The notes below the pieces were generated by a model that was not told the origin of the DNA, did not search any database, and saw only the letters and a list, made by a program, of their open reading frames with translations. From contig JBHIAV010000005.1 in NCBI GenBank assembly GCA_046758745.1, positions 32,001-96,000 of the forward strand: a DNA stretch of 64,000 bases. The letters run 5' to 3'. Positions 1 through 12,074 of the stretch are shown in pieces; the stretch's first letter is position 1; each line of letters begins with the position of its first letter. The position numbers and the translations under genes were made by a program. Origin of the DNA: Gemmatimonadota bacterium (GTDB lineage: Bacteria > Gemmatimonadota > Gemmatimonadetes > Palauibacterales > Palauibacteraceae).

Positions 1-1628
1 TAGATGTGCCAGTGCTGCCGGATGCCGCTCCGCGCGAAGCCCATCAGCCCCATCAGCCAGGTGAAGGTGACCGCGAGGATGAAGAGCGCGTACTGCGAGC
101 GGGCCGGCATGTGGCCCCAGCGGATGGCGCCGCGCGATTCCGCCCCGCGCATGAGCGCGATGTCGATGAAGACGACGAAGAGGATCGCGGCCAGCACGGC
201 GAGCACCTGGTAGACGCTGAACCCGATGCGCACGATCGCGGTGACGAAGTAGCCGTACACACCGTAGAAGACGACCACCGCCGTCGCGGCGGCCAGCGCG
301 ATCCCCTGCGTGATCGTCCCCGTCCGTGCCCAGCTCACCACCGGGGTCTTGTTGGCCCGCCGGTACAGCATGAAGGAAAGGAAGGTGGTGAGGATCATCA
401 GGTTCACCGCGGTGTTCTTGGCGCTCATCACGCCGAGCACGCCGAGGAAGGGATGGTGCGTCCCTCCCATCGCCGCGATCTCGTCGCGGGTCGCGATCAT
501 GGTGTGCGGGGTAGCCCACACGATCACGCCGAGGACCAGGAGGAGGAGCATCCACTTCACGTACTTCGTGAACCGCTCGGCCCCCGGGATCCTCCCCATG
601 CCGATCCACAGGTAGTAGTTGCCGGCCAAGAAGAGCACCCCGATGAGGAAGGCCTGGACGATCCACAGCCAGCTCATGAAGCCGCCCATCATCGTGATGC
701 CGAGCTGCTCGTTGAACTCGTAGACCTCCCGGCCCAGGTAGTAGCCGGCGAACGGGAGGACGATGAGGGCTCCGATGGCGATGAAGTTCCCCACGTAGCC
801 CATCCAGTCGTAGTGCGCCCGCTCCTCGTCGGTACGGGCGGCGAGGAAGCGGTAGGCGGCGTACGCGCCCACAATGGCCCCGCCGAACACCACGTTGGCG
901 ATGAGCCGGTGGATGTTGATCGGCATCCAGGTGGCGTTGGCGATGGCGCTCCACGTCTGCACGGTGGCCGGGGCCGTGTCCGGTGTCGCCTCGGCGGGCG
1001 GGCTCATCATGTAGGTGAGCCATCCGTTGGCGATGAACATCACCACCGTGCCCCACACGTTGAGCAGGATCCCGAGGCTCCAGTGCCACGCCTTGGCCCG
1101 CCCCGCCTTCCACCGCTCCCACCCGTAGTAGTACAGGTACAGGGTGAACGACTCCAGGAAGAAGAGCCCGACGTACAGCCACATCGAGGGTCCGAAGACG
1201 GCCGTCATGTATGCCCAGAAGACGGGGTACAGGGTCGAGAGGAAGAAGACGAGGATGGCGCCCCAGATCGCCGTGGCGCTGTAGGCGATGAGGAGGAGGC
1301 GGGTGAACTCCCTGGCCAGCCGGTCGTATCTGTCGTCCTTGCCGAAGATCCCGATCGCCTCCACCACCACCGCGAACATCGGAACCCCGAGCACGAAGGC
1401 CGCGAACATGAGGTGCACCTCGGCCGCGATCCACACCGCTCCGCGCGCGCCCACGATCGGGAAGTCTCCGTACGCCCGGACCGCCTCCTGCGCGACGAGC
1501 GGATCGGCCGCGAGCAGCAGCCCGGCGGCGATCGCCCCTCCGACGCCGAAGGCGCGTCTCCCGACCCTCCTACCAGCCGCAGCGGGCGCCCGCACGCGCC
1601 GCGTGCCGAGGCGGGGGGATCTTCTCAC
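1..1628 (-). CDS. Cytochrome bd-like oxidase subunit I (CydA superfamily, non-canonical Nitrospira/OR-N-like); runs off the window edge
   Basis: Not in the ORF track because it has no stop in the window. Manual translation from GTG at 1628, which overlaps the upstream TGA, gives a polytopic membrane protein with EVHLMFAAFVLGVPMFA, FFLESFTLYLYYYGW, WMPINIHRLIAN, GTHHPFLG and RSGIRQHWHI. Confidence 0.85.
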   Translation of the reverse strand, partial: MRRSPRLGTRRVRAPAAAGRRVGRRAFGVGGAIAAGLLLAADPLVAQEAVRAYGDFPIVGARGAVWIAAEVHLMFAAFVLGVPMFAVVVEAIGIFGKDDRYDRLAREFTRLLLIAYSATAIWGAILVFFLSTLYPVFWAYMTAVFGPSMWLYVGLFFLESFTLYLYYYGWERWKAGRAKAWHWSLGILLNVWGTVVMFIANGWLTYMMSPPAEATPDTAPATVQTWSAIANATWMPINIHRLIANVVFGGAIVGAYAAYRFLAARTDEERAHYDWMGYVGNFIAIGALIVLPFAGYYLGREVYEFNEQLGITMMGGFMSWLWIVQAFLIGVLFLAGNYYLWIGMGRIPGAERFTKYVKWMLLLLVLGVIVWATPHTMIATRDEIAAMGGTHHPFLGVLGVMSAKNTAVNLMILTTFLSFMLYRRANKTPVVSWARTGTITQGIALAAATAVVVFYGVYGYFVTAIVRIGFSVYQVLAVLAAILFVVFIDIALMRGAESRGAIRWGHMPARSQYALFILAVTFTWLMGLMGFARSGIRQHWHI

Positions 1629-2986
1629 GATCGGTCCCTGCCTCCGGCGAAGAACGGGAGGCGACGCGAGAAGTCGATCGGCATCTCCGAGCGAATCCTC
1701 TCCATGAGCTCCGGCGTGACGCGGGCGTGCCCCTTCCGGCGGGCGTACGCCTCGACCCGGCTCACCACGACACCCCGCACGAAGGAGGGGATCCGGGCGA
1801 GCCGCGCCTCGGCCTCCGGCGTCCACTCCAGCTCCGGGAGCTGCGCCATGCCGTACAGCACCGCGCGCCGAGGCTCCACCACCGGGAGGTCGCCGGCGGG
1901 CTCGTACGCGCAGGAGGGATCCTCGGCCAGGAAGTCCCCGTCCCGCGCGAAGGCGCGTGCCCGGCACCCGCCGCACACCTTCCGGTACTCGCACCTTCCG
2001 CACTTCCCCCCCAGCTCCCCCTCGCGCAGGAGGCGGAAGAGGGGAGCCGAGCGCCACACCTCCGCGAACCCCTCCGACCGCAGGTCGCCGGCCACGGCCG
2101 GAAGGTAAGGGCAGGGCGTAAGCTTCCCCTCGGGAGTGATCCGGCAGTACTGCACGCCGCATGGGCAGCGGGTGCCGTAGTTGAGGAGAGGCGACTCGGG
2201 GTCGGACTCCCATGCGTGACGCATGATCTGCGGCTGGCACTTCGAGCGGACGAGCATCCGGCCCCGGTATCTCCGCTCCAGGATGACGAGGCCGCGCAGG
2301 ACCTCCTCGTTCTCGACCGGAGCGAGGCCCCGCATCCCCTCACCCCGACCGGTCTGGACCAGGAAGTACACGTTGAACGACACGGCCCCCGCATCGGCGG
2401 CCCACTCGGCCAGTGCGGGTATCTCGTCCCGATTCCCTCGCGTGACCGTCGTCTGGACGATGAAGTCGAGGCGCGCATTCCTCAGCCGTTCCACCGCCCC
2501 CAGCGTCTCCTCCAGCGCTCCGGATCCGTGCCGGAAGCGGTCGTGGTAGCGAGGGTTCAGCGAGTCGACGCTGATCGCCGCCCCGCTCACTCCGGCCTCC
2601 TGCAGGGACTCGATTCGCTCCACGGTCAGCCGCGTGCCGTTCGTCCCGACGACCACCGTGGCGCCCCCCTTGTGGGCGTGTGAGGCGATCGCCTCCAGGT
2701 CGTCGCGGAGGAGGGGCTCGCCCCCGCTGAGGATCAGCAGGGGAGCGGGGTTCAAGGCGAGGATCTCTTCGATGATGCGGAAGCACTCCCCCGTCGTGAG
2801 CTCTCCCTCCGCGGAGTGCCACGTTCCGGCGGAGATATAGCAATGCGCGCACGCGAGATTGCAGCGACGGGTGACGTTCCACGCCACCACGTGGGGAAGG
2901 TAGCCGTCGCCGGCAGCCGGCCGTGCCCCCGGACGCGCCGCCACGAGGGCCTCCGGCCACTCGGGTGCGCCGGCCGGCCCGCTCAC
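1625..2986 (-). CDS. Radical SAM/SPASM protein (AhbD/NirJ-like) with C-terminal PCP_red-like domain
   Basis: WNVTRRCNLACAHCY (CxxxCxxC), SGGEPLLR, SPASM cysteines CPCG..YC..PCPY..KCGRCEYRKVCGGCRARA..DPSC; tail WTPEAEARLARIPSFVRG. Confidence 0.88.
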   Translation of the reverse strand: MSGPAGAPEWPEALVAARPGARPAAGDGYLPHVVAWNVTRRCNLACAHCYISAGTWHSAEGELTTGECFRIIEEILALNPAPLLILSGGEPLLRDDLEAIASHAHKGGATVVVGTNGTRLTVERIESLQEAGVSGAAISVDSLNPRYHDRFRHGSGALEETLGAVERLRNARLDFIVQTTVTRGNRDEIPALAEWAADAGAVSFNVYFLVQTGRGEGMRGLAPVENEEVLRGLVILERRYRGRMLVRSKCQPQIMRHAWESDPESPLLNYGTRCPCGVQYCRITPEGKLTPCPYLPAVAGDLRSEGFAEVWRSAPLFRLLREGELGGKCGRCEYRKVCGGCRARAFARDGDFLAEDPSCAYEPAGDLPVVEPRRAVLYGMAQLPELEWTPEAEARLARIPSFVRGVVVSRVEAYARRKGHARVTPELMERIRSEMPIDFSRRLPFFAGGRDRS

Positions 2987-3098
2987 GTCGCCCTGGACAC
3001 CCGCACCGGAGGCACCGCGACCCTACCCGGCCGCGCGCCGGGGTGGCTCCATGACGCGGAGGGCCCGGCACGGCTGTGTGGGATCGGAGCTCCCCTCA

Positions 3099-5108
3099 CT
3101 ACTCGCCCATCGGCCCGGGAACGTCGGCCTCCTTCCTCATCAGCTCCTCGACGGCGCGCCTCGCCTCCTCGGGGGTGGCCGTCTTGAAGTCCACCGGACA
3201 GCGCTCCACCTGACGCTCGATGTCGCGGATCGGGCAGCGCGTTACCCCCGCCGCCTTCGCCTCATCGATGAACTTCCGCATCTCGGGACTCACCCCATCC
3301 AGTCCCGCCGCCTCCGCCCGCGCCTGCTTCGCCTTGAGCTCGTTGAACATCACGAGCATGGTGTCCATGTCGAACTCGTCGGCTTCGATCATCGCCTGCT
3401 TGTTGTCGTCCATCACCATCGTGGTGACACGCCACATGCCGTGGCGCCGGGCAAAGCGCTCCACCGTGTTGCGGGCGAGAGGGCGCGCGATGAGCGGGAC
3501 CTGGCGGAGACGGTCGTACGCCTCGTGCGTCCACACGACCGGGTCTTCCTCGGTCCGCTCGCGCACGGTGGCGTGTCCGGAATAGGGGCACTTCGTCTCC
3601 ACGGGTCGGGGCGACTCGAAGACGTCCGCGTCGTGCGTCTCCACGACGGTGCGCTTCATCGCCTCCTCCGCCTTCACCTCGGCCAGGGCGAGCTCCTCGG
3701 CATCACCGACACCCATGATGAGCTGCATGTGGGTGGGGAGTAGCCTGCGGATCGCTCGGTCCAGCCACTCGTTCGTGACGGTCGGCAGTTCGGGCGGCGT
3801 GTGCTCCACATTCTCGAGAACGAACTCCTCGACCGCCTTTCGGGCGATCCCGAGCGCAAAGGGAGGGACCCGAAGGATTCGCACCTCGGCCTCCGGCGCC
3901 CACTCCAGACCGGTCTCGCCGTCTTCCTCGATCCATGGGATCTCGTCGGGTCGCACGTCCGTCGTCCCGATGAGGAGCACGCTGCACGGCGCGAGGCGGA
4001 TCAGGTTCTCGGCCTGCGACCCCATCTCCGTGCCGTCGACGCGGTGCGCCCCGTGTCGGGCCAGCACCAGCAGAGTCGGCTCGACCTCCTCGGCCCACTG
4101 GAGCACCACCTGGAAGGGCTTCCCGATGAGGATCTGCGTCGCGAGCTTGACGTCCGGGTACTCCTTCGCCATCGCCTCGGCCCGCTTGAGGTTGGCCTGG
4201 CAGAGACGGAGCAGACCCTTGTCGATGATGTTGTTGTGCAGCTCCTCCTGCTCCTCGAACTTGAAGACCTTCGAGGCCTGCACGGAGAGGACGTCCTTGA
4301 TGTTGTTGAAGACGACGTGGTGGTACTCGACGTCGAAGGCGCTGCACACGAAGAGCTTGGCCCCGAACTCTCGCGCCATCTCCAGCGCCATCCGCATCGC
4401 CTTGTAGCAGTAAGACGATCCATCAATGCACACCATCCACCGTCCGCCCTGTAGCGGCCGGTCGTCACGCACGATGAGGACATCCTTGTGCACCGAACGG
4501 ACCACGCGGGAGACCACGCCGCCGAGCTGCGAGTAGGGCTGACGTCCGATGCCGTGCGCCCCTATGGCCAGGAGGTCGTAGCGTCGCCCGGAAGAGCCGG
4601 CGAGCTTCCGCTCCGAGTCTTCTTCCTCCGCCACGAGGCGACCGGTCTCGCTGATCTTCACGTCGCTGCGAACGACGTCGCCGCCGTCGTATCGGGCGGC
4701 GATGTTCGGATCGAACCCGATGAGGCTCGGGAGCTGGCCGCGGCCCTCGTTCGCCTCCCGGATGATCTCCTCGAAGTTGATCCCCTCGAGGAGCTGCCGG
4801 GTGAGCGGCGCACCCGCCTCCGAGCAGCGCTGGGCGACCCGGTCCAGAAAGCTGTCCGCGATGAGCTGGAGACCCTTCTCGATCAGCTTGTCGTGAATCT
4901 TCCGCTGTCGCTTGATCTCCTCGGAAGTCTGGAAGCGAGCGGGGAGCCCGCTCTCCAGCTGGCGGAAGCGAATGTCGTGGAGCCGCGCTGCGTACACGTG
5001 GTTCGCCGTGATGCGGCCGCCCGACCGCGAGCACAGCTCGATCGCGCGCTCGAGGGCCCAATCAGAGTGGACCGAGTTGTCCACGGGAACGAGCAGCTCA
5101 CGGTACAT
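3099..5108 (-). CDS. Tandem universal stress protein (2x USP) with two PCP_red-like domains and a Cys-Pro-containing tail
   Basis: MYRELLVPVDNS..AL and LLAIGAHG..LGGVVSRVVR (USP1); WMVCIDGS and LLVLARHG..MGSQAENLIRLAPCSVLL (USP2). Start placed at ATG 5108 after a GAGG. Confidence 0.85.
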   Translation of the reverse strand: MYRELLVPVDNSVHSDWALERAIELCSRSGGRITANHVYAARLHDIRFRQLESGLPARFQTSEEIKRQRKIHDKLIEKGLQLIADSFLDRVAQRCSEAGAPLTRQLLEGINFEEIIREANEGRGQLPSLIGFDPNIAARYDGGDVVRSDVKISETGRLVAEEEDSERKLAGSSGRRYDLLAIGAHGIGRQPYSQLGGVVSRVVRSVHKDVLIVRDDRPLQGGRWMVCIDGSSYCYKAMRMALEMAREFGAKLFVCSAFDVEYHHVVFNNIKDVLSVQASKVFKFEEQEELHNNIIDKGLLRLCQANLKRAEAMAKEYPDVKLATQILIGKPFQVVLQWAEEVEPTLLVLARHGAHRVDGTEMGSQAENLIRLAPCSVLLIGTTDVRPDEIPWIEEDGETGLEWAPEAEVRILRVPPFALGIARKAVEEFVLENVEHTPPELPTVTNEWLDRAIRRLLPTHMQLIMGVGDAEELALAEVKAEEAMKRTVVETHDADVFESPRPVETKCPYSGHATVRERTEEDPVVWTHEAYDRLRQVPLIARPLARNTVERFARRHGMWRVTTMVMDDNKQAMIEADEFDMDTMLVMFNELKAKQARAEAAGLDGVSPEMRKFIDEAKAAGVTRCPIRDIERQVERCPVDFKTATPEEARRAVEELMRKEADVPGPMGE

Positions 5109-5423
5109 CGACACCTCGAATCCAGGGGTGCCGCCGCCCAAGTGGGAGCGCGGGAGGCGCCGGGCGTGCGGGAGGGGCGAGCCGCAGGGCCGGTGGTGAC
5201 GCGGCTCCGCCCGCGAAGCAGCGCGCGACGGTCTCGGAGCCGGATCTCCACCTCAGCCCCACGAGCCTCTCGACCCGTCGTTCCCGAGGCCCACTTCGAT
5301 TCCGGCGTAGGGCGCGCGCCGCGCGCGGCGGGCCCGCCTCTATCGGTGAGACGGGCCCCCGCCCGTCCCGAATTCGACTCGAAAGGAGCGCCTCTCCCCT
5401 GACCCGGGAGTGCGCTCGGCGTG

Positions 5424-5454
5424 AGTATATAGCCGCGGCGGCGACAGCTGTCAA
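5424..5454 (-). promoter_or_regulatory. Sigma70-like promoter upstream of the USP-rSAM-bd-like genes
   Basis: Minus strand TTGACA (5454-5449), 17 nt spacer, TATATA (overlapping TATACT). Confidence 0.65.
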
Positions 5455-5549
5455 ACGCCGCCAAACAGGCGCTCTCGAGGCGCGGACGACCCCCCGATCC
5501 ACCGCTCTCCGCGCCCGAGGAACGCTCTCGCCGGCGGGTTCGGATGGGC

Positions 5550-6302
5550 TCACGCAGCCGCTCCGGCGAGCCGGCGGGCGAGGGTCGGCGCCGCCGCGAG
5601 AACAAGCCCCGCCCCCAGCAGGACGACGGCGATGGGCCCGATCCACGAGGCGAGGGGACCGACCCCGCCGGTACCCGTCAGCGCCCGGGTGACCGCAGGG
5701 GACCCCGCCGAGACAGCGAGCAGGCCGTCGTGGAGCGGGCCGAATGGGCTGAGGTGTTCCACCGTCTCGGCCCATGTTCCGGGCCCGGCCGCGCGGAACA
5801 CCCCGCTCAGGTGGAGCGCGAAGAGCGACGCCGCCGCGCACGCGAGGGCGCCCTCGGCGAGCGAGCGCACGAGCGCCGCGATGACACTTCCGAGGAGGTT
5901 TCCGAAGAGAAGCGCGAGCAGCAGCCCCGCCGCGGCGCCGAGGCCCGGCGCCCACGAGGCTCCGGAGACCGCGAGCAGGATGAGGAGGAGGGGCAGGAGC
6001 TGGAGCGCGTCCAGGGCCGCCGCCGCGATCGTACGCTCGGCGAGCCAGGCGCGCTCGCCATACCCGGTCAGCCTCACTTTCTCCACCCAGCCGGACGCCC
6101 CCTCTCGCACGAGCGGGATGCAGCTCCCAAAGGTGGCGAAGAAGACGATGAAGACGCTGAACACGGCCGCCCGGTGCGGTGCGGCCGCCGGACTCGCCGC
6201 CACCGGGAGCAGAAGCGCGACGGGGACGATCACGTTCCAGGCGAAGAGTCGGCGACGCGTGAGGGCGATCCGCCACTCCAGGGCCCACACGCGCCCGATC
6301 AC
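5550..6302 (-). CDS. ABC-2 type transporter permease
   Basis: About six hydrophobic segments, VWALEWRIAL N-terminus and LSPF C-terminal motif; lies directly after an ABC ATPase. Start estimated at GTG 6302. Confidence 0.7.
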   Translation of the reverse strand: MIGRVWALEWRIALTRRRLFAWNVIVPVALLLPVAASPAAAPHRAAVFSVFIVFFATFGSCIPLVREGASGWVEKVRLTGYGERAWLAERTIAAAALDALQLLPLLLILLAVSGASWAPGLGAAAGLLLALLFGNLLGSVIAALVRSLAEGALACAAASLFALHLSGVFRAAGPGTWAETVEHLSPFGPLHDGLLAVSAGSPAVTRALTGTGGVGPLASWIGPIAVVLLGAGLVLAAAPTLARRLAGAAA

Positions 6303-6333
6303 GGGTGCTCCCTCCCCCGACCCTCTCTGTCCC

Positions 6334-7350
6334 TCACGGGCCGCCGCGAGCGGAGAGACCCGTCCCCCGCAGCGCCGTCTCGTCGGGGGCCGGGGCCGCC
6401 CCGTCGAGGGGAACCCCGGCCAGCTCCAGGAAGACGTCGGCAAGGTTCGGCTCGTGCACCCGAATGGAGCGGGGCTCGCACCCGGCCTCGAGCAGGCGTG
6501 CGCACAGCTCCGGGAGCGCGGCGCCCCCCGCGGGTGAAGCGAAGCGTGCTCCCTGCGGATACAGTGCCAGCGTCCGCACCTGCGGCTGCGGTTCGAAGCT
6601 CCTGCTCGGCATCTTTCCCGACACCTCGATCACGGTCTCCTTCGCCAGCCCGGCGATGAGGTCGCGGGGAGGGCCGTCCGCGATGAGCCTTCCGCCGTGC
6701 AGGAAAGCGACCCGGCTGCACGCCGTCTCCACGAACGCCGGATCGTTGGAGGCCACCAGGGCCGCCGCTCCTCTCGACGCCGCATCGGCCATGGCCGCTC
6801 GCAGCGCCGCCACGCCGAGGGGATCCAGCCCGAGCGTGGGCTCGTCGAGCAGGAGGAGGTCGGCTGATGCGGCCACCGCCTCTGCGAGGGCGAGACGGCG
6901 GCGCATCCCGTGCGAGTAGATCGATACCCTTTCCACAGCGCGGTCGGCGAGGCCGAAGTCGCGCAGCGCGCTATCCAGCGCACCGGCCGCTGCCTCGCCC
7001 CCGTGTCCCCTGAGGCCGAGCAGACGGAGAACGTTCTCGCGCCCCGGGAGGGATTCCTGAAACGGAGTGCGGTCGAAGACGACGGCAACCCGCCGGCGGA
7101 GGTGCGACGCCGAGTCGGAGGGCTCGTTCGGGAAGAGGCGTGCCGAGCCCTCGGCCGGAGGGAGCACCCCGGCTACGATGCGGAGAAGGGTCGTCTTCCC
7201 GGAGCCGTTCGGCCCCATCACTCCGAGGACTTCCCCGGCCGCCAGCTGGAGCGTCAGCCCCACCAGAACAGGCGGCCCGTCGGCGTAGCGGTGGCCCAGC
7301 CCGCACAGGGCCAGGACGGGTCCCACCGGGACGGACGGACCTGTCGTCAT
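6334..7350 (-). CDS. ABC transporter ATP-binding protein (exporter type)
   Basis: GPNGSGKTT, YSHGMRRR signature, LLLLDEPTLGLD, C-terminal PNLADVFLELAG. Confidence 0.88.
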   Translation of the reverse strand: MTTGPSVPVGPVLALCGLGHRYADGPPVLVGLTLQLAAGEVLGVMGPNGSGKTTLLRIVAGVLPPAEGSARLFPNEPSDSASHLRRRVAVVFDRTPFQESLPGRENVLRLLGLRGHGGEAAAGALDSALRDFGLADRAVERVSIYSHGMRRRLALAEAVAASADLLLLDEPTLGLDPLGVAALRAAMADAASRGAAALVASNDPAFVETACSRVAFLHGGRLIADGPPRDLIAGLAKETVIEVSGKMPSRSFEPQPQVRTLALYPQGARFASPAGGAALPELCARLLEAGCEPRSIRVHEPNLADVFLELAGVPLDGAAPAPDETALRGTGLSARGGP

Positions 7351-7706
7351 GGGACGAGCGTGTGACCGTCCTCGTCATACACGGTGATCGCGTCCACCGG
7401 ACAGGCGGCGCACGCCCGCAGGAGACGCTCTCGCCCCACCGCCTCCGGAGTCGTCAGCACCGCGATCTCTTCCGCGTCCAGCGCGAACGCCGCCGGCGCT
7501 TCGGCGATGCACTCCGCGAAGCCGACGCACAGGCCCCGGTCGATCGCCACGCGAAGCCTCCCGACCCGGCGGTCGCACCGCGCATCCGCGATGGCTTCCG
7601 GCATCCGGCCCGCAGCGAGGACCGGCGACTGTCCCGGCGCGGCCTCCTCCCGCCGGGCAGCCGCCGACCCGGCACCGCGAGGGGGAGGGGGGACGGATGC
7701 CGTCAC
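7347..7706 (-). CDS. Small single-cluster ferredoxin (3Fe-4S type)
   Basis: VAIDRGLCVGFAECIAEAPAAF...ACAACPVDAITV. Start uncertain (GTG 7706 or ATG 7604). Confidence 0.8.
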   Translation of the reverse strand: MTASVPPPPRGAGSAAARREEAAPGQSPVLAAGRMPEAIADARCDRRVGRLRVAIDRGLCVGFAECIAEAPAAFALDAEEIAVLTTPEAVGRERLLRACAACPVDAITVYDEDGHTLVP

Positions 7707-8152
7707 ATCCCCTCGAGGCCGAGCTCCCGACGTGCCCGATCCATGATGGCGGGAGTGATCTCGGCGATGCCCCGCTCCCTCGCATAGTCGATGTAGATGC
7801 GCTTTACCATCCCGCGCACGAAGGAGGGGACGGCCCCCAGCCGTTCGATCGCCTCCACGCTCCAGCGCACCGTGGCGGCCGACGGCTCGGGCGGTGCGGT
7901 ATCCGCGAACGCCTTCTCCCGGCCCTCCGCCAGAGAGCCCCGCACCATCTCGAAGGGCTGTTCGGGCACCGCACGCCCCCCGATCCGGACCCCGAGGGAG
8001 GCCACGAGCTGCGTCTCCATGGGGTTGGTCAGCAGTCCGACCCGGTGGTCGCACGACGGGCAGCGGAAGGCGGCCGCCAGCGTGCCGTCCCCCGGGAGGT
8101 CCCGCTCCTCGAACACCATCTGCTCGTCGCACTCCACGCACAGGAACTTCAC
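7703..8152 (-). CDS. Zn-ribbon plus PCP_red-like domain protein
   Basis: CVEC...CPSC at the N-terminus; C-terminal WSVEAIERLGAVPSFVRGMVKRIYIDYARERG. Confidence 0.8.
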   Translation of the reverse strand: MKFLCVECDEQMVFEERDLPGDGTLAAAFRCPSCDHRVGLLTNPMETQLVASLGVRIGGRAVPEQPFEMVRGSLAEGREKAFADTAPPEPSAATVRWSVEAIERLGAVPSFVRGMVKRIYIDYARERGIAEITPAIMDRARRELGLEGM

Positions 8153-9036
8153 GCCGCCTCCTCGCCCCCCAGGAGGGTCGCGGCGATCGTCGCCAGTGCC
8201 CTGCCCGCCGGACGATCGAGGGCGCCGAGCGGGTCTCCCTTCTCCGCCAGCGCGGCGCTCTCGGGATCAAGCGGGACGCGCCCGAGCAGCGGGATTCCGA
8301 ACAGCCCGGCCAGAGACTCACCGGCATCGCCTCGGAAAAGAGGCCGCACCGCTCCACACTCCGGGCAGGCGTACCCGGACATGTTCTCGATCACACCCAG
8401 GGCGGGCATGCCCCGCTCCCGGGCCTCGCGGAGGGAACGCTCCACGCTGGCGCGGGACGCGTCCGAGGGGATGGTGACGACCAATGTCCCCGAGAGGTCG
8501 GGAACGAGTTCCGCGAGGTCGATCATGCGCCCCGTACCGGGCGGAAGATCGATCAGAAGGAGATCCAGCTTCCCCCACTCCACGTCCCCCAGGAACTCGC
8601 GCAGTGCCCCCTGCTCCTGCGCTCCCCGCCACACGAAGCTCTCCGAGGCGGGCTCCTTCCAGGCGAGAGGTCGTCCCGCCTCCAGAAGCAGCTCCATCGA
8701 CATGACCCGCACTCCCGCCGGGCTCACCGCCGGCACCACCGCCGATTGCTCCACGCGGAGCTCTCCCGGCGACACCCCCGACAGGCGGGCGGCCGTCGGG
8801 CCGTGAAGGTCGGCGTCGAGCAACCCGACCCGGGCCCCTGCGCGAGCGGATTGGGCGGCCAGCAGGGCTGCCACGAAGCTCTTCCCGACCCCGCCCTTTC
8901 CGCTCATCACGGCCACACAGCGTTCCACCAGCTCGAGGCGCCGGCGCACTTTTTCGCGCTGCGCGGTCACCTGAGCGACGAGGTCGGACCGGTCCCGGCC
9001 GAGGAGCTCCGAGTAGGTGCGGAAACCGATCGTCAC
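8149..9036 (-). CDS. Mrp/ApbC/Nbp35 family P-loop ATPase (Fe-S cluster carrier)
   Basis: SGKGGVGKS, LLDADLHGP, WRG, DLPPGTG, ENMSGYACPEC. GTG start at 9036 overlaps the upstream stop. Confidence 0.88.
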   Translation of the reverse strand: MTIGFRTYSELLGRDRSDLVAQVTAQREKVRRRLELVERCVAVMSGKGGVGKSFVAALLAAQSARAGARVGLLDADLHGPTAARLSGVSPGELRVEQSAVVPAVSPAGVRVMSMELLLEAGRPLAWKEPASESFVWRGAQEQGALREFLGDVEWGKLDLLLIDLPPGTGRMIDLAELVPDLSGTLVVTIPSDASRASVERSLREARERGMPALGVIENMSGYACPECGAVRPLFRGDAGESLAGLFGIPLLGRVPLDPESAALAEKGDPLGALDRPAGRALATIAATLLGGEEAA

Positions 9037-9530
9037 AGGTCCCAGCCGGCGCGGGCCAGCATCCACAGGTTGATGAGCACGACGACCACGGCCGTCACGT
9101 AGAGCGCCGCCGGGAGGCGGGCCTCCGCAACGGGCAGGAAGCCCCGCCGGACGAGGGCGGGGAGGCGGAGCGCGTGAAGGAGCCACACCGCCCGCGCGAA
9201 CCACGGATTCTGCCAGCGCCACAACCCCCAGAAGACGACGGCCACGATGGCCGCGCCGAGGAGGAGCCACACCCAGACCGCACCGCGCTCGGCCGGCAGG
9301 ACGCCGGCCCGAGCCGCGGCGATGACGGCCGCCTCGTACAGGAGTCCGACGTGCAGATAGACAAACGCCGCCTGCCGGAACTTGACGGCCCGCGCCGGCG
9401 CGTGAGGCAACCTTCGCGCCCGGCGAGCCGCCGGCTCGGCCGAACCGGGCCCGTCCGCCACCGCGCCTTCCGGACTCTCCGCCGCTCGGCTCCCCGCCAT
9501 ACTCTCTTCCGTCTGGGGTCTTTCGCTCAC
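9033..9530 (-). CDS. Hypothetical membrane protein (about 4 TM segments)
   Basis: Hydrophobic segments; translationally coupled to the Mrp gene. Confidence 0.65.
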   Translation of the reverse strand: MSERPQTEESMAGSRAAESPEGAVADGPGSAEPAARRARRLPHAPARAVKFRQAAFVYLHVGLLYEAAVIAAARAGVLPAERGAVWVWLLLGAAIVAVVFWGLWRWQNPWFARAVWLLHALRLPALVRRGFLPVAEARLPAALYVTAVVVVLINLWMLARAGWDL

Positions 9531-9712: not shown

Positions 9713-9916
9713 GTGTCCCTCATCGGCTTTCACAGGGTTCTGATCGGGAGCGCGATTCTCTTCTGCGCGCTCTTCGCAGTGTGGGAGGGGTGGCGATACC
9801 TGCAGGCGGGAGGCGCGGCCGAGCTCACCCTCGCCGTCGTGTTCGGAGTCCTCGCCTGCTCCCTCGCGTACTATCTGGCGAGGCTCAACCGCTTCCTCGG
9901 ACGCGAATCTTCTTGA
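9713..9916 (+). CDS. Small 2-TM membrane protein
   Basis: Strong RBS (GAGGAGG) before GTG; two hydrophobic helices. Confidence 0.65.
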   Translation: MSLIGFHRVLIGSAILFCALFAVWEGWRYLQAGGAAELTLAVVFGVLACSLAYYLARLNRFLGRESS

Positions 9917-9985: not shown

Positions 9986-10618
9986 GTGAGCGACGAGGTC
10001 GGCGCCGGCGGGAGTCCCGCCTGGCTCCTCGGCGCGGCGGCGCTCTTCCTCCTGCTCCTGGCGGCTCTCGTCGCGACCTCCCTGTGGCGCCGCGAACCTC
10101 CGGCCTTTCCCATCACCCACCGGACGCCTCAAGAGGCGGGAGACTCGCTCGGCCGAGGCCTCGTGACGCTCGACGCACGGGACCGGCGCGCCTGGGTGCG
10201 CTTCGACTTCTCCCGCTCCGCGGTCGTGGAGAGCGGGGAGCCGGCGGGCTGGGATGTGGCCGCTCGCCGCCATCGATTGATCGTCAACGGTGGCCAGGGC
10301 TTCGCCGGGCACGGAGGCGTGATCGAGGTCACCGGCACGCCGTACGAGGCGGTGGGCGAGGCACCCGACGAGGGGTACACGGGATCCAGGGTCACCGCGG
10401 GAGGCGACTCGGTCAACTCCGTCTTCGACGGCTGGTACCGCTACGGCTTCTTCTCTCACCTGCTCGAGCCGAAGCCGGCCACGTACATCGTGCGAACGGC
10501 AGACGGAAGATATGCGAAGCTGCGCATCCTCAGCTACTACTGTCCGGGAGCGGAGCCCGGCTGCCTCACCTTCGAGTACAGCTACCAGGGAGCGGGCGGA
10601 ACGAGGCTGGCGCCCTAG
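9986..10618 (+). CDS. HmuY-like heme-binding protein with N-terminal membrane anchor
   Basis: LDARD..WVRFDFS, WDVAARRHRLIVNGG and WYRY...YIVRTADGRYAKLRILSYY resemble HmuY family motifs. Confidence 0.75.
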   Translation: MSDEVGAGGSPAWLLGAAALFLLLLAALVATSLWRREPPAFPITHRTPQEAGDSLGRGLVTLDARDRRAWVRFDFSRSAVVESGEPAGWDVAARRHRLIVNGGQGFAGHGGVIEVTGTPYEAVGEAPDEGYTGSRVTAGGDSVNSVFDGWYRYGFFSHLLEPKPATYIVRTADGRYAKLRILSYYCPGAEPGCLTFEYSYQGAGGTRLAP

Positions 10619-11121
10619 TCGTCCGACAGCTCCCTGATGCGAGTCACCAGGCGCGAGGTCGAGCGTTCCGGCACAAGCGGGAGCACGTGCACCTCGCCAC
10701 CCGCCGCGAGCACGTCGGGGCCGCCCACGATCTCCTGTGGTCCGTAGTCGCTCCCTTTTACAAGCACGTCGGGGAGCAGCTTCCGGATCAGCTCGAGCGG
10801 CGTGTCCTCGTCGAACACGGTGACAGCGTCCACGCAGCGGAGCGCGGCGAGGATCACCGCCCGGTCCCCCGCCGTCTGGAACGGCCTGCCTCTTCCCTTG
10901 ACCCGGCGCGCCGAGGCATCCGAGTTCACTGCCACCACGAGTCGATCACCCAGGCGGCGAGCCTCCTCGAGACACCGGATGTGCCCGGCGTGCAGGAGGT
11001 CGAACACCCCGTTCGTGAAGACGAGCCGGTGGTCGCGAGGCCTTCCGTACGTCGCGCACAGCGCCGGCCGGGCGAGCACGCGCCCCATGCCCGGTACGCG
11101 GCGTTCCTCGCCGCCCCTCAC
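10615..11121 (-). CDS. rfaE2: D-glycero-beta-D-manno-heptose 1-phosphate adenylyltransferase (RfaE domain II / HldC)
   Basis: LVFTNGVFDLLHAGH, VAVNSDASARRVKG, PDVLVKGSDY, STS. Confidence 0.9.
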   Translation of the reverse strand: MRGGEERRVPGMGRVLARPALCATYGRPRDHRLVFTNGVFDLLHAGHIRCLEEARRLGDRLVVAVNSDASARRVKGRGRPFQTAGDRAVILAALRCVDAVTVFDEDTPLELIRKLLPDVLVKGSDYGPQEIVGGPDVLAAGGEVHVLPLVPERSTSRLVTRIRELSDD

Positions 11122-12074
11122 CTCGGGTCCCTCGCACGGCGCCCGAGCAGCTCTCCCGCTCCTCGCTCGAGGAGTCGTTCGGCGAGCGCCCTCCCGATCG
11201 CCGCCGGCTCGAACGCCGAGCCGGAGAGCGCATCTCGGATGGCGACCCGCCCGTCGGGCGAGAAGACGGCGGCGGCGGCGCGCAGGCGCGGCCCCTCCAC
11301 CTCCGCGAATGCCCCAACCGGGATCTGGCACCCCCCTCCGAGCGCTGCCAGCAGGCTCCGCTCGCACTCGACCGCGGTCCTCGCTTCCCGGCTCTCGATC
11401 GCCGCCAGCAGGCGAGCCGACTCTTCGTCCGAGGCCCGTGCCTCCACGCCGAGGGCGCCCTGCCCCACGGCCGGGAGCCATTCCGGCGGTTCGAGCCGGG
11501 CGAGATGCCGGTGCGGGAGGCCAAGCCGCCGCAGTCCGGCCGCCGCCAGGATGATCGCGTCGTACTCCCCGTCCCGACACTTGCGAAGGCGGGTTTCGAC
11601 GTTCCCCCTGATGCTCCGAACCTCGCAGTCCGGCCGCCGGGCCAAGAGCTGCGCGACGCGCCTCAGGGAGGAGGTGCCGAGCACGCTACCTGCCGGAAGA
11701 TCCTCGAGTCCTCCCCTTCCCTCCCGGCGGATGAGCAGGTCGGCTGCGTCCGAGCGCTCTGGAACGCATGCCAGGCAGAGCCCCGCCGCCAGGTCGGTCG
11801 GGAGATCTTTGAGGGAGTGCACCGCGGCGTCGATCTCCCCCCGCAGGATCCGCCTCTCCAGCTCGGCGGTGAAGAGACCCTTGCCGCCGATCTCGGGAAG
11901 CGGTCGATCGATCGATCGATCCCCCTCGGTCTCCACGCCGACGATCTCCACGACGAGACCGGGCCAGGCCGTCCGCACCCGCTCGGCGACGACCTCGCTC
12001 TGGGCCATAGCGAGCCGCGACCGGCGCGAGCCGATGATGAACCGGGAACGGGAGAGCTCTGGCATGGCCGCCAT
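11118..12074 (-). CDS. hemC: Hydroxymethylbilane synthase
   Basis: GSRRSRLAMAQ, GGKGLFT, AVHSLKDLP, GTSSLRR, IRGNVETRL, GGCQIP. Confidence 0.95.
   Translation of the reverse strand: MAAMPELSRSRFIIGSRRSRLAMAQSEVVAERVRTAWPGLVVEIVGVETEGDRSIDRPLPEIGGKGLFTAELERRILRGEIDAAVHSLKDLPTDLAAGLCLACVPERSDAADLLIRREGRGGLEDLPAGSVLGTSSLRRVAQLLARRPDCEVRSIRGNVETRLRKCRDGEYDAIILAAAGLRRLGLPHRHLARLEPPEWLPAVGQGALGVEARASDEESARLLAAIESREARTAVECERSLLAALGGGCQIPVGAFAEVEGPRLRAAAAVFSPDGRVAIRDALSGSAFEPAAIGRALAERLLERGAGELLGRRARDPR

Follow-up and report, generated by a model that had tools for sequence, protein, structure and literature searches.

What might a domain known from the tail of dark-operative protochlorophyllide reductase (DPOR) be doing in three neighbouring proteins of a Gemmatimonadota bacterium, directly ahead of a respiratory oxidase gene? 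The question is raised by a stretch of 64,000 nucleotides (hereafter the window; assembly GCA_046758745.1, contig JBHIAV010000005.1 or C5, positions 32,001 to 96,000), whose minus strand carries a gene cassette with four copies of the PCP_red domain (PF08369). The main context of these copies lay outside the original prediction, which had been made from the sequence of the window: the cassette is tied to a bd-like oxidase of the OR-N group, whose gene starts at position 1628. We judge it about evenly balanced that the cassette is a dedicated haem maturation or delivery module for OR-N oxidases, with PCP_red as the likely connector.

PCP_red copies and the OR-N oxidase gene

When all six frames of the window and of the entire 3.08-Mb assembly were scanned for the tryptophan-led motif, it turned up exactly four times, always on the minus strand of the window, with tryptophan codons starting at 1825, 3533, 3902 and 7864, where the original prediction had placed them at about 1824, 3532, 3901 and 7863. 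Its assignment of the motif to PCP_red was borne out by the Pfam hidden Markov model (HMM) search it had proposed, since PF08369 scored above its cut-off of 32.5 bits in all three proteins (radical S-adenosylmethionine (SAM) enzyme, 56.3 bits; universal stress protein (Usp), 53.9 bits over two stretches; Zn-ribbon protein, 48.9 bits). Scored singly, three of the four copies exceeded the cut-off (60.1, 51.2 and 43.2 bits), among them the copy in the radical SAM tail (1694..1825, residues 388-431, 60.1 bits) and the second copy of the Usp protein (3402..3533, residues 526-569, 43.2 bits). The first Usp copy (3741..3902, residues 403-456), in which an insertion precedes the last helix, reached only 23.6 bits alone (E 2e-4, model positions 1-31); its first 27 positions are near-invariant across 75 orthologues, and both Usp copies form three-helix units in the AlphaFold model, with helices at 405-411, 416-433 and 446-456 in the first. 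The Zn-ribbon copy (7730..7864, residues 97-141) was found by Pfam and matched solved BchB/ChlB tails and the stand-alone protein Asr4154 (2XDQ, E 2e-7; 2KRU, 9e-6; 2L09, 2e-3). The four copies have 9-15 of their first 30 residues in common. No further PF08369 match was found in the genome (87% complete), so that no bchB was found in it; the BchB models matched only the tails, at 18-40 bits against cut-offs near 500, and their nitrogenase-like catalytic domain was not found.

All genes of the cassette lie on the minus strand, in the order small membrane protein (9033..9530; three hydrophobic peaks, no Pfam family), Mrp/ApbC-family P-loop ATPase without the N-terminal DUF59 (8149..9033; ParA/NUBPL, 216.6 bits), Zn-ribbon-PCP_red adaptor (ZnPCP; 7703..8152, 149 residues, with conserved cysteines in a CxxC..CxxC Zn-ribbon, a linker and PCP_red, assigned by Pfam), small mono-cluster ferredoxin (7347..7604; Fer4_13), an optional pair assigned by Pfam as ABC ATPase (6334..7350) and ABC-2 type permease (5550..6302), tandem Usp protein with two PCP_red copies (Usp-PCP; 3099..5108, 669 residues), radical SAM-SPASM enzyme with a C-terminal PCP_red (1625..2986, 453 residues, AhbD/NirJ2-like by HMM and eight-cysteine motif) and, last, the CydA-like oxidase gene, whose 5' part fills 1..1628 and which runs off the window edge to end at contig position C5:31796. 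The stop of the radical SAM gene overlaps the probable start (1628) of the bd-like gene, and the start of the ZnPCP gene overlaps the Mrp stop. Past the window edge follow two c-type cytochromes, a protein with dihaem c and EB_dh domains, a carboxypeptidase-regulatory-like protein, CoxB/A/C/D and CtaB.

The protein encoded by the last gene has the CydA fold (Z 30-33 to CydA chains in a model-based structure search), with 13 long helices in the model and 12 hydropathy peaks, compared with 14 transmembrane helices in OR-N1/N2. Its gene has no adjoining CydB and is accompanied by cytochrome c and alt-NxrC-like neighbours, the TO_1 pattern. Equivalents of His19, His126, His186 and Glu108 are retained, the first of them as His72, invariant in 58 orthologues; the haem site appears unusual, because an invariant tyrosine (58/58 orthologues) stands at the position of Geobacillus CydA Glu101, and His392 and His541 are extra invariant histidines. 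Only by counting residues from a motif of weak alignment does a serine fall at the second haem-ligand glutamate of CydA, and we base nothing on it. No OR-N structure was found in the PDB. In gene content, its neighbourhood matches two clusters, TO_1 of Ca. Manganitrophus and bd-like_3 of Nitrospira, as given in the accessible parts of their descriptions (10.1101/2021.11.15.468770, PMC6606698, PMC3578206), and this corresponds to the OR-N1/N2 group defined by Murali et al. The same genome contains a second OR-N/TO_1-like cluster (L093, G000:C12 22394-32045), with an oxidase 54% identical and no cassette beside it; paralogues similar to this oxidase occur in three other genomes (G056, G082, G123), all cassette-positive.

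The closest relatives are all from Gemmatimonadota. In the best 80 of 512 confirmed matches, the loci of which were fetched, we found Usp in 80, the radical SAM enzyme in 80 (a few through the PCP domain only), ZnPCP in 75, Mrp in 69, the ferredoxin and the bd-like gene in 68 each, the small membrane protein in 34, and the ABC ATPase and permease in 26 and 27, respectively. The order Mrp-ZnPCP(-ferredoxin)-Usp-PCP-radical SAM-PCP-bd-like is retained within the phylum: Mrp adjoins ZnPCP in 64/64 cases and Usp adjoins the radical SAM gene in 66/66, while the bd-like gene follows a complete radical SAM gene in 66 of the 67 loci with room behind it. A survey of 251 Gemmatimonadota genomes, in which the unpublished G153 enters only as one without the cassette, extended this linkage to presence and absence. 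PF08369 occurs in 84 genomes and a bd-like orthologue (threshold E<1e-200, the remaining matches being at the level of canonical CydA) in 73, all 73 among the 84, and 167 genomes have neither. The other 11 PF08369-positive genomes comprise eight with true BchB above its cut-off, one with a short BchB-type frame and two (G176 and G048) in which the contig bearing the cassette breaks off within the radical SAM gene. The G048 cassette (L082, G048:C4) is of a divergent type, with 36-44% identity, and many similar proteins exist in ENA assemblies.

More distant Usp-PCP homologues (10 proteins looked up) are named from Nitrospinota, SAR324, Ca. Manganitrophus and Mariprofundaceae; Ca. Manganitrophus and Nitrospinota are reported carriers of OR-N in the accessible parts of the literature. 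These distant Usp proteins have 0-6 PCP_red copies (23 of 25 scanned have the domain), often together with a rubredoxin-like knuckle. The best 80 of at least 548 distant metagenome loci have PCP_red in every Usp protein, and contain 32 complete radical SAM-PCP genes, seven Mrp genes, three adaptors and, in three loci, the small membrane protein of the cassette; a bd-like gene is present in six, where Usp-PCP stands directly ahead of bd-like, Rieske and cytochrome b genes. Another eight have Usp-PCP by a cox cluster, two of them behind TO_1 cytochromes, and in about 40 the Usp-radical SAM pair is flanked by an Slr0320-like enzyme and a small membrane protein. The contexts differ among the distant loci, and the Usp-PCP protein is therefore the constant member.

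Several side observations were made on these loci. The Slr0320-like radical SAM gene (445.6 of 775 bits; e.g. L128:129-1775) precedes Usp-PCP in 30/80 loci and often follows a UbiE-like methyltransferase (15 loci); at a guess, it may belong to quinone synthesis and not to the cassette. The flanking small membrane protein, which has no Pfam match, lies 3' of the radical SAM-PCP gene in 30/80 loci (e.g. L105:13663-14232). A protein made of four PCP_red domains only (L129:17078-18037) was found downstream of Mrp and a two-PCP adaptor. In four proteins (P0148, P0151, P0165, P0198), Usp(-PCP) is fused to a pyridoxamine-oxidase-like split-barrel (in P0148 the Pfam match is weak); flavin- and haem-binding proteins are among those with this fold.

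Enzyme, putative carrier and predicted adaptor

The best families for the radical SAM enzyme were TIGR04055 'NirJ2' (293 bits) and AhbD TIGR04545 (286.5 bits), both with a cut-off of 500, and distant homologues reached 305-335 bits against TIGR04545; peptide and protein maturase families gave 156 bits or less. TIGR04051 NirJ gave 186.8 of 515 bits, and no nir genes were found among the conserved neighbours. The CX3CX2C radical SAM motif is present in 70/70 homologues, and the full SPASM spacing, CX20-33CX17CX36-37CX2CX5CX2CX17-35C, in 69/70 and 31/32; this is the eight-cysteine spacing of AhbD as given in the accessible part of PMC10452713. On sequence grounds, the enzyme would work like AhbD by its motif, yet it stays below the AhbD family cut-off. 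It is unlikely to be the sole route to haem b, because the genome has HemE, ferrochelatase, ChdC and a separate TIGR04053 AhbD-like enzyme above cut-off, and a ChdC-family gene is present in 67 of the 73 cassette genomes; AhbA/B (PF17805) was not found in the genome, 87% complete. The TIGR04053 enzyme (L175:300-1412, G000:C51) is only 31% identical to that of the cassette, and its family is above cut-off in 26 of the 251 genomes. A plasmid search for annotated AhbD relatives found TIGR04053-type proteins only (29-37%). The oxidase operon at L177 closes with a gene for a ChdC-family protein fused to a Rieske domain (L177:17056-18138) and, behind it, hemE and hemH.

The Usp protein has the fold of tandem Usp proteins such as Rv2623 and TTHA0350 by model fold match, with long helical insertions. 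Each Usp half contains a His-x3-Phe ... Gln-x3-His-x6-Gly-Leu pattern with an identical 28-residue spacing of the histidines, and His44, His72, His263 and His291 are invariant in 95/95, 95/95, 96/96 and 96/96 sequences, respectively, from several phyla. This suggests a pseudo-symmetric four-histidine site that could bind haem or metal. ATP-binding Usp proteins have the motif G-2x-G-9x-G-(S/T), the glycines of which are conserved in 94-95 of 95-96 sequences, with alanine in place of the first glycine of domain 2 in the protein from the window. Three Cys-Pro motifs in the tail (C507, C625 and C637) are present in 74/75 Gemmatimonadota orthologues, against a background of 33/661 open reading frame tails with one such motif and 1/661 with three. 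They resemble the Cys-Pro-Val haem motif of haem lyases, and may at most be lineage-specific support for haem binding.

The Mrp protein has a deviant Walker A motif, PF10609 above cut-off and PDB sequence matches to ApbC/Cfd1; the ApbC and MrpORP models stayed below cut-off. In Mrp/ApbC proteins, a C-terminal CxxC is the cluster-binding motif. This CxxC is present in the protein from the window and in 43 of 65 orthologues and absent from 22 (one a truncated sequence), and the four cysteines of the adaptor are invariant in 52 sequences, so that it may be the adaptor that carries the Fe-S or metal site. The original prediction proposed PCP_red as a shared docking tag, possibly for Mrp, or as a tetrapyrrole/Fe-S assembly module, and it called for modelling of each domain with Mrp. 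The prediction with two Mrp chains, two ATP and one ZnPCP scored 0.65, compared with 0.00 for the best of three controls; the mark for a complex is reached by 116/157 solved complexes and 2/215 mismatched pairs, and is only a rough guide where a prediction uses its own alignments and ligand. The runs agree in at least 88% of contacts, with a partner pLDDT of at least 78. A Mrp-ZnPCP complex is thus predicted, as had been supposed, but the confident interface places ZnPCP residues 1-84, the Zn-ribbon and an invariant linker, on the N-terminal helix of Mrp and its residues 85-146. Residue 114 is the only PCP_red residue listed in it, unlisted residues being uncertain. The idea of a tetrapyrrole or Fe-S assembly module is supported by the HMMs and the AhbD motif, whereas docking of PCP_red itself on Mrp is not favoured. 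The N-terminal half of the adaptor has no PDB sequence match. Database fusions of Mrp with ZnPCP and of ZnPCP with the radical SAM enzyme (13 sequences inspected) are mostly frameshifted read-throughs, from clusters in which fused proteins stand together with separate ones, and were rejected as evidence.

A proposed haem maturation role and its rivals

In a haem maturation and delivery module, the Mrp dimer would bind the Zn-ribbon half of ZnPCP with PCP_red outside the confident interface, so that ZnPCP would be an adaptor that ties Mrp to the module and offers its PCP_red to another partner. The radical SAM enzyme would have its three [4Fe-4S] clusters inserted or kept intact by Mrp and adaptor and would draw its electrons from the ferredoxin. 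Its substrate would be an iron-porphyrin, whose propionate side chains it would alter; the product could be haem b, formed without oxygen, or a haem of tailored structure. The haem would then reach the oxidase by way of the ATP-binding tandem Usp, carried between the paired histidines of this protein. PCP_red would serve as a repeated protein-protein connector linking adaptor, enzyme and carrier. Its variable copy number, the existence of PCP-only proteins, the copy-specific conserved surfaces and the absence of a metal ligand common to the copies fit such a role better than that of a cofactor site.

Several results weigh against this reading. The 73/73 co-occurrence is a strong pattern but does not amount to 73 independent tests, since related genomes are not independent and the genes are linked; within the phylum, the co-occurrence is largely that of one linked operon in related genomes. 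A profile search of the cassette-bearing genomes G048 and G176 gave no OR-N, the sole hit in G048 being CydA-like at 6e-22 (its cassette contig, of 9.6 kb, may be mis-binned). In the fetched DNA of the six distant loci with an adjacent bd-like gene no radical SAM or Mrp gene was found, and about 40 of the 80 distant loci, nearest to the Manganitrophus query, have Usp-PCP and radical SAM-PCP with no oxidase found within the fetched DNA. The Cys-Pro motif occurs in only 3/70 distant Usp-PCP tails, and a universal Cys-Pro haem motif was rejected for this reason. The Fe-S-loading step is weakened by the loss of the CxxC from a third of the Mrp orthologues noted above, blind-picked neighbouring genes pass the complex test in 7/44 cases, and the Mrp-ZnPCP pass may partly be likeness, because complexes of Mrp-family ATPases are in the PDB.

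The enzyme might instead be an ordinary oxygen-independent coprohaem decarboxylase of the AhbD type that backs up ChdC at low oxygen for the whole respiratory locus (c-type cytochromes, caa3 and bd-like), the cassette then being a general micro-oxic source of haem b and no tool of the OR-N protein; we hold this to be unlikely. This reading accounts for the full AhbD motif, for hemC in the window, for the chdC-hemE-hemH genes that end the oxidase operon in G042 and for the cox genes by the cassette in eight distant loci. It stays alive because AhbD is also found in bacteria of the coproporphyrin pathway, some of them facultative, that lack the remaining Ahb enzymes, and there offers an alternative to ChdC that does not depend on oxygen (PMC13564367, accessible part). 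However, the cassette was not found in any of 176 genomes that lack the OR-N orthologue, and many of these encode ChdC. The genome also has another AhbD-like enzyme already, the TIGR04053 protein above cut-off, and neither Usp nor adaptor nor a PCP_red tail is required by a plain AhbD. Maturation of the oxidase protein instead of its haem would explain other features of the cassette and seems to us a slender prospect. Mrp and adaptor would then be an ATP-driven metallochaperone pair, by analogy with HypB/HypA, since Mrp-type HypB pairs with the zinc protein HypA, while the four-histidine Usp would carry a metal and the SPASM enzyme would modify a residue of the oxidase. A CxxC dispensable in 22/65 Mrp proteins beside an adaptor with four invariant cysteines would agree with such a pair, as would the Mrp profile matches to PDB 3VX3 and 5AUN-5AUQ, which we take to be HypB-HypA structures, and the extra invariant histidines and the tyrosine of the oxidase could point the same way; a copper site has been proposed for one Nitrospira bd-like protein in the accessible part of its description. 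The radical SAM enzyme, though, reaches much higher scores with tetrapyrrole enzymes (287-293 bits) than with peptide or protein maturases (at most 156), and no HypA homology of the adaptor was found, the HypA family matching just 3/52 adaptors at E 0.13.

Two further alternatives concern PCP_red itself. In BchB, the tail is thought to sit near the P-loop ATPase BchL, and by this analogy PCP_red could be a shared tag that docks each of the three proteins on Mrp; the tail is not treated in PMC13474568 and PMC12022308. Mrp belongs, like BchL, to the MinD/NifH class of P-loop ATPases (with weak matches to Fer4_NifH and BchX), helix 2 of the radical SAM and ZnPCP copies has a motif very like that of BchB, ZnPCP invariably adjoins Mrp, and its residue 114 is in the predicted interface. 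Nevertheless, docking on Mrp appears doubtful, as the confident contacts lie outside the PCP_red domain, Mrp is near the Usp-PCP gene in only 7/80 distant loci, and some proteins have as many as six copies, while one consists of four PCP_red domains alone. If PCP_red were itself a lid or hand-off surface for tetrapyrroles, by which each protein catches the iron-porphyrin, the role of the domain would change and not that of the cassette; we regard this as rather improbable. The only two settings of the domain seen in the phylum, BchB and the cassette, are tetrapyrrole-related, and a Pro-x-Phe-Val-Arg-Gly patch is conserved in the BchB, radical SAM and ZnPCP copies; both Usp copies, however, carry a different patch, no conserved His, Met, Cys or Tyr ligand is common to the four copies, and each copy retains its own signature, as expected of distinct protein interfaces. 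A haem maturation and delivery module with PCP_red as connector is the reading that we carry forward.

The surroundings of the cassette contain further genes. An HmuY-family (haem-binding) protein lies beside it (9986-10618, plus strand) and in 5/80 related loci, and hemC, encoding porphobilinogen deaminase (11118-12074, minus strand), lies 1.6 kb upstream; hemC is present in eight related loci and directly ahead of the cassette in several. A 67-residue hydrophobic open reading frame of no known family (9713-9916, plus strand) is divergent from the cassette. No match to a sigma-70 promoter was found, and terminator matches were near chance. Outside the window, small genes and an integrase-like open reading frame at the contig start (C5 83-3466) suggest an integrated element.

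Significance and known relatives

In the accessible parts of the literature, OR-N bd-like proteins have been proposed to serve as terminal oxidase or electron-transfer module in major nitrite oxidisers, in anammox bacteria and in manganese lithotrophs, and they have no confirmed function in the parts consulted; a strictly co-inherited gene set could offer a direct route to their cofactor and active expression. The cassette is also the first non-photosynthetic setting for testing PCP_red function, and gives a candidate haem- or metal-binding role to a universal stress protein. In a bolder version, an AhbD-derived radical SAM enzyme would produce a modified haem of a kind not known before for OR-N oxidases, with their tyrosine at the glutamate position and their extra histidines; the four-histidine Usp would be a new type of ATP-gated haem chaperone, and repeated PCP_red domains would form a general code for assembly, in common with chlorophyll biosynthesis. 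Were this true, the cassette would be what has been missing for expression of the terminal oxidase proposed for Nitrospira, Nitrospina and manganese oxidisers, but this version is in our view not a likely one. No description of the assembled cassette was found in the literature searched, a coverage outside which most subscription journals lie; PMC12342949, PMC10839748 and PMC8115632 discuss OR-N or UspA proteins without the cassette in their accessible parts. Every part is of a known family, and the assembled cassette, undescribed in that literature, is a variant of cofactor-maturation operons.

Cofactor genes clustered with the respiratory enzyme that they serve are a familiar arrangement. 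The haem d1 nir genes of cd1 nitrite reductase and CtaA/CtaB for haem a are dedicated haem-tailoring operons, the former including a NirJ-like radical SAM enzyme. The cassette resembles them in this clustering and differs in its gene set, the Usp, Mrp and PCP_red modules being foreign to those systems. Its radical SAM enzyme has in common with AhbD and 'NirJ2' the CX3CX2C motif, the full SPASM spacing and the best HMM matches, and is set apart by scores below both cut-offs, by the extra PCP_red tail and by a genome in which no AhbA/B was found and ChdC and a TIGR04053 enzyme coexist. Likewise, Mrp resembles the Mrp/ApbC/NBP35 Fe-S carriers in its deviant Walker A, PF10609 and PDB matches to ApbC/Cfd1, whereas the absence of an N-terminal DUF59, the frequent loss of the CxxC and the predicted separate four-cysteine partner are its own.

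The PCP_red copies belong to the same 45-residue three-helix family as the BchB/ChlB tail (2KRU, 2XDQ, 2YNM) and stand-alone Asr4154 (2L09). In contrast to DPOR, no nitrogenase-like partner is present, the hosts are non-phototrophs, and the fusions are with a radical SAM enzyme, with a tandem Usp and with a Zn-ribbon, at one to six copies per protein. The oxidase, finally, shares with OR-N1/N2, with TO_1 of Ca. Manganitrophus and with bd-like_3 of Nitrospira, Nitrospina and anammox bacteria the CydA fold and a layout in which one CydA-like gene stands ahead of two genes for c-type cytochromes and one for a dihaem c/EB_dh protein. What distinguishes the Gemmatimonadota locus from those clusters is a heterotroph-rich phylum, one operon together with caa3 oxidase genes, and the cassette in front, which the accessible parts of the TO_1 and bd-like_3 descriptions do not mention.

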